From the NCBI RefSeq assembly GCF_054482595.1, contig NZ_CM137008.1: 64,000 nt of DNA, one strand, 5' to 3'. Numbering within the stretch: the first letter of the stretch is position 1; each line of letters opens with the position of its first letter. Shown here piece by piece: positions 19,297 to 20,090 of the stretch. The position numbers and the translations under genes are program-made. The notes beneath the pieces are model-generated. The model worked only from the letters and a program-made list of their open reading frames with translations, did not search any database and was not told the DNA's origin.

Positions 19297-19351
19297 ATTT
19301 AATATCACCTAAAGAGAATTTGGTTAGCTCAAACTGTTGTGTGGATTTTCT

Positions 19352-19603
19352 GTGGTAGCGGATCCTACCACGACTCTGCAGGTTAAAAACACTGGCAGTC
19401 TGAGTGTTAATCGGTATGGATGGATTAACATCTGGATGGCTATTTTAGGTCAATTCTTCACCCGATTTCCACTTTTTTTTGAATCGTGTCTCATTCTGTT
19501 AAAAACGTGGCTGGAAATTTTTCCTGACAATGCCGGCATTCTGCGTATTTATCTTTTGCAATTTTCTGCCATTGTGGGGTATAAAACGCGGCGCGCGGCT
19601 TAA
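19352..19603 (+). CDS. yqgD: Small uncharacterized protein YqgD (doubtful ORF; GTG start assumed)
   Basis: ORF 19337..19603 at the position and orientation of yqgD; overlaps the metK promoter region; coding status uncertain. Confidence 0.35.
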
Positions 19604-19815
19604 ATAAAAAGCACACGACGTTTCTTTCGTGTTGCCACTTCCAGCCGGGTTGAAATCAGAGTTTTGGCTTGTGGGTTCGTCTTAACAGGCGGCCGTGGAG
19701 GTGATACGAAATAATGAACCGTTGTCTGCTGCTTAACCTGTCTCACCGTTCTGGTGAAGATTCGTTCCCCGCACTCTGCATCTCTGCTTTGCATACCTGC
19801 CGATGTTATACCCAT
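19600..19815 (-). CDS. yqgC: Small uncharacterized protein YqgC (71 aa)
   Basis: 71-aa ORF at the position and orientation of yqgC between yqgD and yqgB. Confidence 0.4.
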
Positions 19816-19950
19816 CTCGGCGCTTCTCAGGATTCAAGAGCTGGTTACAGTTACTGAGGACTGAACAAGGGCGCTCTTGTAAAAACAAGAGTTTTCTCGT
19901 GGTTTCGCCGAACTGTCACACTTACGTTCGGTTATGTGCTTAATAATGTT

Positions 19951-20082
19951 ATGAAAAAGAAACCGGTTGCGCAGTTGGAGCGTCAGCATTCACTGCTGGA
20001 AAATCCATGTGCTTATGGGTTGTTATCGCAGTTCCAGGCTGCGATAGTCGTTAACTGTTTTACACTTAATAAAATAATTTGA
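19951..20082 (+). CDS. yqgB: Small protein YqgB (43 aa) just upstream of speA
   Basis: Read by hand: [43 protein letters not shown]; too short for the ORF track; ends 8 nt before the speA ATG. Confidence 0.75.
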
Positions 20083-20090
20083 GGTTCGCT

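Follow-up and report, generated by a model that had tools for sequence, protein, structure and literature searches.

In the tnaC-tnaAB operon, tryptophan-dependent ribosome stalling blocks the access of Rho to the transcript, and the leader peptide TnaC stalls at Pro24-stop in the presence of free tryptophan. Adjacent stop and start codons can also couple the translation of neighbouring cistrons through termination and reinitiation, which is a general feature of bacterial operons. TnaC has been cited as a reference arrest peptide (PMC11890864), and the inducible ornithine decarboxylase operon speFL-speF carries an ornithine-sensing arrest peptide (PMC11890864, PMC6386406). In SecM, residues 163-RAG-165 lie at the peptidyl-transferase centre, Arg163 is indispensable and Pro166 occupies the A site (PMC10951299, PMC12992588). 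Here, we analysed the interval between metK and speA of Escherichia coli, which carries the small open reading frames (ORFs) yqgD, yqgC, yqgG and yqgB, in a 64,000-nucleotide (nt) stretch of contig NZ_CM137008.1 (RefSeq assembly GCF_054482595.1); "the window" below means this whole stretch, and all coordinates refer to it. The closest described systems appear to be mdtU-mdtJI, tnaC-tnaAB and speFL-speF, all of them Rho-linked leader peptides, of which two belong to the polyamine pathway. speA itself stands at the entry of the arginine route to putrescine and spermidine, and we know of no description of post-initiation control of SpeA synthesis.

Our comparison suggests that the interval is a control region of the leader-peptide or upstream-ORF (uORF) type, in which yqgG would gate Rho-dependent termination and yqgB would deliver ribosomes to the start of the long form of SpeA; we give this reading a probability of roughly 0.6. 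We likewise lean towards regarding the interval as the 498-nt leader of a yqgG-yqgB-speAB transcript together with divergent metK and speA promoters, rather than as four independent small genes. Such a transcript was proposed as probable by Adams et al. in 2021 (PMC7815308), who cloned the whole speA 5' untranslated region (UTR) with one primer, GCGCGGCTTAAATAAAAAGC, placed at 19593 and a second that is the reverse complement of 20063-20090. Because these primers span 19593-20090, yqgG and yqgB both lie inside the leader. The transcription start site (TSS) at 19593 rests on the cloning primer and on promoter conservation: the speA promoter, which overlaps the 3' end of yqgD, was placed 7 nt upstream of the TSS, and its -10 element and the initial transcribed region (19578-19600) were >95% conserved in 79 species. 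The same study counted yqgB-speA among uncharacterised candidate regulatory uORFs and included yqgB in a list of experimentally validated uORFs. It further reported a Rho termination region at window position 19947 (score 3.69, p = 8.7e-20), a coordinate taken from 800-nt windows and thus of low positional resolution, a Rho-dependent Term-seq 3' end 57 nt into speA (20148; Rho score 3.09, flagged 'uORF') and a second Term-seq 3' end at 19707. In northern blots and with a 5' UTR fusion, rhoR66S altered read-through of the speA leader (PMC7815308).

The arrangement of the locus is widely kept. The metK-speA region was carried by 5425 of 5426 complete E. coli genomes, and window positions 19250-20150 were 100% identical to many RefSeq genomes. 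We fetched 80 Enterobacteriaceae speA loci (79 Enterobacteriaceae sequences entered most counts, and all counts out of 79 below refer to them) and added, via SpeA orthologues, eight more genomes from Erwiniaceae, Yersiniaceae and Pectobacteriaceae, giving 87 Enterobacterales genomes in total. metK and speA were divergent in 78 of the 80 fetched loci, which had an intergenic length of 633-1039 nt and were aligned, and in all eight distant genomes. Codon tables and the invariance of flanking sequences were counted over 65 distinct nucleotide versions.

The frame of yqgB appeared to be preserved far more strictly than its product. The ORF started with ATG in 79/79 sequences and contained an internal stop in none of them. 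It ended at one of two sites, either at a TGA inside the Shine-Dalgarno sequence (SD) of speA, 8 nt before the speA ATG (59/79), or at the TGA formed by speA codons 2-3, ending 8 nt past the speA ATG (20/79). The latter stop was used by all eight distant genomes; in Dickeya and Pectobacterium the uORF peptide is unrelated to YqgB, yet the ORF closes at the same second stop, which was also used in Yersinia and Erwinia, where the start of the yqgB counterpart is not ATG. The distance between the yqgB and speA ATGs took at least 12 values between 125 and 268 nt, a multiple of three being found in 0/79, and an in-frame yqgB-speA fusion was absent from all 87 genomes. Among gapless orthologues, we counted no stop position in the yqgB frame as against 11 in each of the other two frames.

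The peptide gave a different picture. The ratio of nonsynonymous to synonymous substitution rates (dN/dS), obtained by pooling pairwise comparisons between species that are not independent and given without a formal significance test, was 0.79 for the whole yqgB ORF versus 0.91 and 0.65 for the out-of-frame controls; by part, codons 1-8 gave 0.24, codons 9-20 gave 1.13 and codons 21-39 gave 0.95. For the ORF as a whole, dN/dS thus gave no sign of the purifying selection on amino acids that marks a genuine protein-coding gene. What yqgB keeps are the features of a regulatory uORF, namely its frame, its start and a stop site that adjoins the speA start, regardless of the peptide. The conserved 'LLS' and 'AAI' residues of YqgB coincide with the arms of an internal hairpin, and their third codon positions were as invariant as the first and second, which indicates a constraint at the nucleotide level. 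The six pairs of this hairpin were present in 79/79, with a variable loop and no covariation. Judged from these alignments, yqgB bears the signature of an ORF whose translation has to reach a set end point, and not that of a protein.

The sequence-only reading of this DNA had proposed that yqgB, ending 8 nt before the speA start, might encode a leader peptide or a coupled small protein. The spacing is as described, with 20083-20090 separating the yqgB stop from the speA ATG, and the frame open in 79/79, the two fixed stops and the lack of fusion to speA support the leader or coupled ORF. That reading also held that a lack of purifying selection would speak against the small ORFs. For yqgB this test is too crude because selection acts on frame and end point: the dN/dS run indeed left the peptide unconstrained, but frame and end point appeared to be selected, as predicted for a coupling or leader uORF.

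Three further observations concern yqgB. In three species, a repeat of ~125 nt of the enterobacterial repetitive intergenic consensus (ERIC) type lay within the yqgB 3' end and was read through in frame. In two loci, and probably in a third, the ERIC element sat at the equivalent of 20071, giving a uORF of 87-91 codons that still ends at the speA start; in nine other loci, an ERIC element was found at the equivalent of 19605, 12 nt after the TSS. These elements, recognised through matches to the ERIC1R and ERIC2 primer sequences, have thus entered the leader at two sites in different lineages. A promoter-like site inside yqgB (TTAACT-16-AATAAT, 20051-20078) has its -10 in variable codons, and is therefore no conserved promoter. 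When YqgB served as query in a word-indexed protein search, only clusters from Escherichia and Shigella came back, which is uninformative on the range of the peptide.

The better leader-peptide candidate of the interval, as far as conservation can tell, is yqgG, which the sequence-only reading had overlooked while correctly listing yqgD, yqgC and yqgB. yqgG is preceded by a strong SD, GGAGGTG, and the SD region GTGGAGGTG was nearly identical across four families. An ATG start was found in 78/79 and a length of 43-51 codons in about 74/79; among gapless orthologues, the yqgG frame held no stop position versus eight and seven in the other two frames. Homologous ORFs of 44-68 codons occurred in Serratia, Yersinia, Dickeya, Pectobacterium, Rahnella, Pantoea and Mixta. 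The 47 residues of YqgG (19714-19854) matched the profile PF23505 over its full length (E = 3e-38, 130 bits, cut-off 27), as the homologue of Yersinia ruckeri also did, and the NCBI Prokaryotic Genome Annotation Pipeline (PGAP) annotates yqgG in place of yqgC in genomes other than K-12. Weaver et al. detected YqgG carrying a sequential peptide affinity (SPA) tag.

Selection on the YqgG peptide was concentrated at its C-terminus. The N-terminal two thirds had a dN/dS of 0.67 (0.78 and 0.65 out of frame), whereas the six codons for Q-D-S-R-A-G reached 0.05, versus 1.34 and 4.05 out of frame. In the 65 versions, Q was present in all, D was encoded by GAC in 34 and GAT in 31, R was present in all through AGG, AGA, CGG and CGA, A in all through four codons and G in 64 through three. 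In every family except in Erwinia amylovora, the motif forms the end of the ORF or lies 1-6 codons before the stop. The codon after RAG was variable (N 13, R 11, Y 9, K 9, Q 5, stop 5, and others) and was never Pro.

Two arginine positions of YqgG showed a peculiar codon usage. R30 (19801-19803) was CGA in 79/79, and R43 (19837-19839) was AGG in 43, AGA in 25, CGG in 7 and CGA in 4, with CGT and CGC never found; rare Arg codons made up 65 of 2111 (3%) in the first 400 speA codons of the same genomes. Rare codons at R30 and R43 could reflect selection for slow decoding that is sensitive to the supply of Arg-tRNA. A nucleotide-level cause of the CGA at R30 is also possible, since this codon lies in a hairpin stem (19799-19821).

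The body of yqgG is C-rich and G-poor, and includes a candidate Rho utilisation (rut) site. In 60-nt windows, the C/G ratio of this tract was 1.75-2.33 versus at most 1.1 elsewhere in the leader. The bias of yqgG was kept among the Enterobacteriaceae (median 1.41; >1.3 in 69/79, versus 0/79 in the three flanking leader segments) and in the eight distant genomes (1.24-1.78). The C-terminal motif and the C-rich body would likely act as sensor and Rho gate, respectively.

At the junction of yqgB and speA, the block 20077-20096 was 96% conserved. The SD and ATG of the long form of SpeA are predicted to be enclosed in a stem of 16 pairs (-21.2 kcal/mol, z = -1.9), which were kept in 74-79 of the 79 sequences with only wobble-compatible changes; the stem was kept in Erwinia and Dickeya, and other folds were found instead in Yersiniaceae. 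The 3' arm of the stem falls where Meydan et al. reported conserved synonymous sites at the speA 5' end and left them unexplained; the stem may offer an explanation. SpeA is known from retapamulin-assisted ribosome profiling (Ribo-RET), in vitro ribosome profiling (INRI-seq) and N-terminomics to initiate at two sites, ATG 20091 and ATG 20169; the published short form is 26 residues shorter. As the start of the short form lies downstream of the stem, its synthesis should not depend on yqgB. Only the long form adjoins the yqgB stop, so that any coupling would shift the ratio of the isoforms and not total SpeA. Ribo-RET in vivo and INRI-seq in vitro both recorded a peak of ribosomes on the annotated speA ATG but no elongating ones, and the start codon of yqgB was detected by INRI-seq.

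The leader as a whole was significantly structured (minimum free energy -177.8 kcal/mol, z = -2.9), and 0/100 shuffles folded as well. The two hairpins after yqgG, T1 and H2, are supported by compensatory changes. In T1, which starts 15 nt after the yqgG stop, the pair 19877:19888 was UA in 45 sequences and CG in 17, and the loop-closing pair was UA in 25 and CG in 13; in H2, both sides had changed in five of seven pairs (e.g. AU 42, GC 11, GU 11). Over T1 and H2, 92.3% of the cells were paired, versus 32-51% when the arms were slid, double-change cells numbered 74 versus 8-16, and the covariation score was reached by 0/500 shuffles. Other families have a hairpin of different sequence at the T1 position. 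The single-stranded flanks of T1, CTGAACAAGGGC (19861-19872) and TTTTCTCGTGGTTTC (19893-19907), were invariant in the 65 distinct Enterobacteriaceae sequences, are unpaired in the supported structure and are unique in the window.

Other structures of the leader are less certain. A 5' structured domain, in which the yqgG SD would be paired, is proposed tentatively from folding predictions (z = -1.4); all seven pairs of the anti-SD pairing were invariant in 75-76/79 and showed no covariation. A closing stem around the yqgB start, GGUUUC (19902-19907) with GAAACC (19959-19964), was considered and discarded, both sides being invariant and z being -0.13. The two Term-seq 3' ends fall just 3' of predicted stems, 19707 lying 4 nt past 19703 and 20148 lying 12 nt past 20136. 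This position suggests that they are exonuclease-trimmed ends and not points of termination, and Adams et al. (PMC7815308) had proposed exonucleolytic trimming back to structure. The features of the interval are collected in Table 1; ORF coordinates were mapped from the K-12 and PGAP annotations, with the window, which runs in the reverse orientation of K-12, converted as 20091 + (3085911 - K-12 coordinate).

Table 1. Features of the metK-speA interval and its borders (window coordinates; SD, Shine-Dalgarno sequence; aa, amino acids)
Feature	Position	Strand	Description
metK	18142-19296	-	Annotation
yqgD (b2941)	19352-19603	+	83 aa, annotated
speA promoter	19556-19585	+	-35 TTGCAA 19556-19561, 18-nt spacer, -10 TATAAA 19580-19585; read from sequence
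speA 5' leader	19593-20090	+	498 nt; holds yqgG and yqgB
yqgC (b2940)	19600-19815	-	71 aa, annotated
5' structured domain (tentative)	19611-19703	+	Hairpin 19611-19635; CACTTCC 19636-19642 with yqgG SD 19697-19703; RNAalifold, RNAfold
yqgG (b4784)	19714-19857	+	47 aa, annotated; antisense to yqgC
C-rich, G-poor tract (candidate rut)	19728-19832	+	Composition; inside yqgG
YqgG C-terminal Q-D-S-R-A-G codons	19828-19845	+	Peptide-level purifying selection
Hairpin T1	19861-19907	+	Stem 19873-19880/19885-19892, then UUUUCUC; terminator-like
Hairpin H2	19907-19932	+	19908-19913 with 19926-19931; covariation
yqgB (b2939)	19951-20082	+	43 codons, annotated
yqgB internal hairpin TATCGC/GCGATA	20024-20046	+	Arms 20024-20029 and 20041-20046; prediction
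yqgB-speA junction	20080-20098	+	yqgB TGA 20080-20082 overlapping speA SD GAGGT 20081-20085; speA ATG 20091-20093; alternative TGA 20096-20098
Predicted stem over speA long-form SD and ATG	20084-20136	+	20084-20101 with 20121-20136; 16 bp
speA	20091-22067	+	Annotation
Short-form SpeA start	20158-20171	+	SD AGGAGG 20158-20163; ATG 20169-20171, codon 27 (Met27)

All four small ORFs between metK and speA are annotated in K-12, which bears out the cluster noted in the sequence-only reading; the yqgD start given there (19337) is an in-frame TTG upstream of the annotated one. yqgC and yqgD, suspected in the same reading to be non-coding, probably are not genes. Of the 78 other genomes, only four, all of them Escherichia, had an intact yqgD and seven an intact yqgC; in the remainder, the ORFs had frameshifts and up to nine stops. 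Neither showed a codon-position pattern (0.193/0.208/0.177 for yqgD), and a profile search of Pfam and NCBIfam gave no match for yqgD. Weaver et al. found no ribosome density on yqgC and no tagged protein. Thus, neither ORF combines integrity in related genera with evidence of translation, as would be expected of a protein-coding sequence. YqgC does have a Pfam family, PF17430, which mirrors the antisense of the conserved yqgG; the N-terminus that is conserved in YqgC corresponds, in antisense, to the conserved 3' part of yqgG, and yqgC is annotated in K-12 and not by PGAP outside K-12.

The suggestion that both ORFs overlap promoter regions held for yqgD, and not for yqgC, which lies inside the speA leader. 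The conserved nucleotides of yqgD fall on the metK promoter side (19397-19456) and on the speA promoter and TSS (19578-19600). The block 19397-19456 was the most conserved of the metK-proximal half (87-95% identity), and a promoter-like -10, TAAAAT, lies on the minus strand at 19442-19447, directed toward metK. The MetJ box AGACGTCT was not found at up to two mismatches on either strand, leaving MetJ without support as an explanation of the conservation within yqgD. A scan with Rfam 15 gave zero matches within 19297-20190. In the wider region 17500-22500, it gave three sub-threshold matches, to naRNA4/REP-like (E = 0.7), BASRCI337 (E = 0.16) and Pseudomonas P31 (E = 0.11), which sit at 18018-18124 (galP-metK intergenic region) and 22085-22134 (3' of speA) and are probably repetitive extragenic palindromic (REP)-type repeats, terminator hairpins or chance.

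If the interval is such a control region, its operation can be pictured as follows. Ribosomes on yqgG would mask the one tract in the leader that resembles a rut site, and their dwell time at the yqgG 3' end would be set by the conserved nascent C-terminus and by the obligatorily rare Arg codons. The occupancy of yqgG would in turn decide on the loading of Rho and on termination before or within yqgB and early speA. Translation of yqgB would keep the distal leader free of Rho, and the ribosomes terminating on the speA SD and ATG would open the local stem and pass to the start of the long form, while the short form would initiate independently at its own strong SD. Arginine, agmatine and polyamines are candidates for the signal.

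Several points weigh against this picture. The dependence of speA output on uORF translation, as well as the coupling, is something that we infer from sequence comparison. Coupling of yqgB and speA is not obligatory and would be partial at most, because the speA ATG binds ribosomes without elongation. The C-rich tract is a compositional hint of a rut site, and composition alone is no proof of Rho binding; the published Rho region, as said, is coarsely placed. Among the structures, the yqgB hairpin and the yqgG anti-SD pairing are uninformative because they are invariant, and the stem over the speA start, with its z of -1.9, no double compensatory changes and its loss in Yersiniaceae, is best taken as tentative. 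The pooling of species pairs also limits what the dN/dS values can bear. YqgG has no A-site proline, as required for arrest of the SecM/RAPP type. Finally, both YqgB and YqgG accumulate as proteins when tagged, and ligand binding has been reported for YqgB (PMC13159126), so that functions in trans may exist.

The last point leads to a different explanation, namely that YqgB (and YqgG) are trans-acting small proteins, in line with the annotation ('acid stress response protein YqgB', 'virulence promoting factor'), and that their position simply reflects operon membership. The 'acid stress' name of YqgB reportedly goes back to Hobbs et al. in 2010. Besides the detection of both tagged peptides, this explanation can draw on curated families: YqgB matched PF11036 (E = 4e-33, 113 bits, cut-off 24; 43 residues) and NF033844 (E = 6e-26, 90 bits, cut-off 35; 40 residues), both over the full length, and YqgG matched PF23505. 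The selection on the YqgG C-terminus could also fit a binding motif in a free peptide. In a 2026 Salmonella study (PMC13159126), YqgB was regarded as a drug target and as a protein of acid stress that is conserved; acid and colistin phenotypes of delta-yqgB and ranitidine binding to YqgB by surface plasmon resonance (SPR) were reported. That study docked ligands into a 'conserved pocket' of the 43-residue peptide, which in our comparison was not conserved as a protein. In the same work, however, delta-yqgB lowered speA and speB mRNA and arginine decarboxylase and was rescued by arginine, putrescine or spermidine, and the word 'complement' is absent from the paper. Overexpressed YqgB evoked an aggregation-type heat-shock response with no arrest signature (PMC11890864). 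Codons 9-43 of yqgB had a dN/dS of 0.79-1.13, the same as the out-of-frame controls, its conserved residues belong to hairpin arms and are invariant at third codon positions as well, and in Dickeya and Pectobacterium an unrelated peptide reaches the same stop. We therefore regard the trans-acting proteins as an unlikely explanation of the locus, although a role in trans and a role in cis can hold together.

Attenuation of the trp type, with T1 as an intrinsic terminator controlled by a ribosome on yqgG via a competing antiterminator, appears to be quite improbable. T1 is terminator-like, follows the yqgG stop closely, is supported by covariation and has a positional counterpart in other families, and CAAGAGC (19835-19841) within yqgG is complementary to its 5' arm. 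Nevertheless, the would-be antiterminator is mismatched in most species (19836:19878 is CT in 62/79, and 19837:19877 is AC or CC in 18) and does not follow the changes in T1. The U-tract is short and interrupted, and lies apart from the stem in Pantoea and Mixta; the Term-seq tables examined give no 3' end at T1 (K-12 about 3086100) or in its vicinity, and read-through of the leader is Rho-dependent. The hairpin is thus real, but the conserved antiterminator that an intrinsic attenuator calls for was not found. It would be even more surprising if the ORFs were incidental, with only promoters and RNA structure conserved and the translation of yqgG and yqgB without consequence. This explanation fits the structured leader and the conservation of both ORFs, which is mostly that of nucleotides and shows no excess at third positions. 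It fails to account for frames that stay open where the sequence varies (0 versus 7-11 stop positions per frame), for the kept ATG starts and the yqgG SD kept across families, for the avoidance of the speA-fusion frame in 87/87 genomes and for a QDSRAG motif that varies only synonymously, and we consider it very improbable indeed.

Going back to the control region in which yqgG gates Rho and yqgB delivers ribosomes, it is tempting to extend it further, though the extension is speculative and, as a whole, rather doubtful. YqgG, with its invariant C-terminal DSRAG and its obligatorily rare Arg codons, would be a metabolite-sensing nascent peptide of the arginine-to-putrescine branch that pauses or arrests the ribosome in response to the supply of arginine, agmatine or polyamines and thereby gates the loading of Rho on the C-rich tract, and yqgB would serve purely for delivery, fixing how much long SpeA is made relative to short SpeA. 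Cis effects on speAB would then account for the acid-stress, virulence and colistin phenotypes that have been assigned to YqgB, and for its proposed drug targeting.

The locus, its ORFs and the idea of yqgB as a candidate uORF are already in the literature. What our comparison adds is evolutionary evidence suggesting that yqgB works as a frame and not as a protein, the singling out of the C-terminal motif and C-rich body of yqgG, and the two covariation-supported hairpins. It also adds a caution: the published phenotypes of the 'YqgB protein' may be cis effects on speAB, and phenotypes and drug docking may report a loss of speAB expression, given that YqgB shows no conservation at the protein level and that complementation was not described. 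In addition, the comparison supports dropping yqgC and yqgD from gene lists.

How does the speA leader compare with the known systems? The resemblance to SecM, ApdA and ApdP, with their 'RAGP/RAPP' motifs, is confined to an invariant Arg-Ala-Gly at the C-terminus of a short regulatory ORF, RAG being present in 64-65 of the 65 YqgG versions. Unlike in those peptides, RAG is never followed by Pro in YqgG, and yqgG does not lie upstream of a Sec or YidC gene; we thus rejected YqgG as an arrest peptide of the SecM/RAPP type for want of the A-site Pro. As in coupling systems, the yqgB stop falls inside the speA SD, no more than 8 nt from the speA ATG, and a predicted stem encloses the speA start. 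yqgB differs from them as a 43-codon uORF with an unconstrained peptide, and speA differs in that its annotated start binds ribosomes on its own and in that it has an independent start 26 codons in.

The three Rho-linked leaders are closer. Compared with TnaC, YqgG has no Pro, its stop follows RAG after 0-6 codons depending on the species, and the C-rich tract lies inside the ORF and not after it; the two share conserved C-terminal leader residues, a rut-type site (a candidate one in yqgG) and Rho termination before genes of amino-acid-consuming enzymes. SpeFL has no sequence similarity to YqgG, and its sensing and stalling were established biochemically, whereas those of YqgG are presumed from conservation; in both cases, however, a leader ORF precedes a polyamine-biosynthetic decarboxylase of Enterobacteriaceae, with Rho and mRNA structure involved. 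mdtU was shown experimentally to mediate spermidine-dependent read-through, whereas any comparable role of the speA leader is hypothetical, and the speA leader has two uORFs, the distal one ending on the start of the main ORF. Otherwise, the likeness to mdtU-mdtJI is close: a short uORF that is translated within the long leader of an operon of the polyamine pathway, Rho-dependent premature termination, conservation concentrated at the C-terminus of the uORF, and a data set that also flagged yqgB-speA (PMC7815308). If our reading of the metK-speA interval is correct, speA would become the third polyamine-pathway leader-peptide operon of E. coli beside speFL-speF and mdtU-mdtJI, conserved across Enterobacterales, and sensing by uORFs would emerge as a general logic of polyamine homeostasis.

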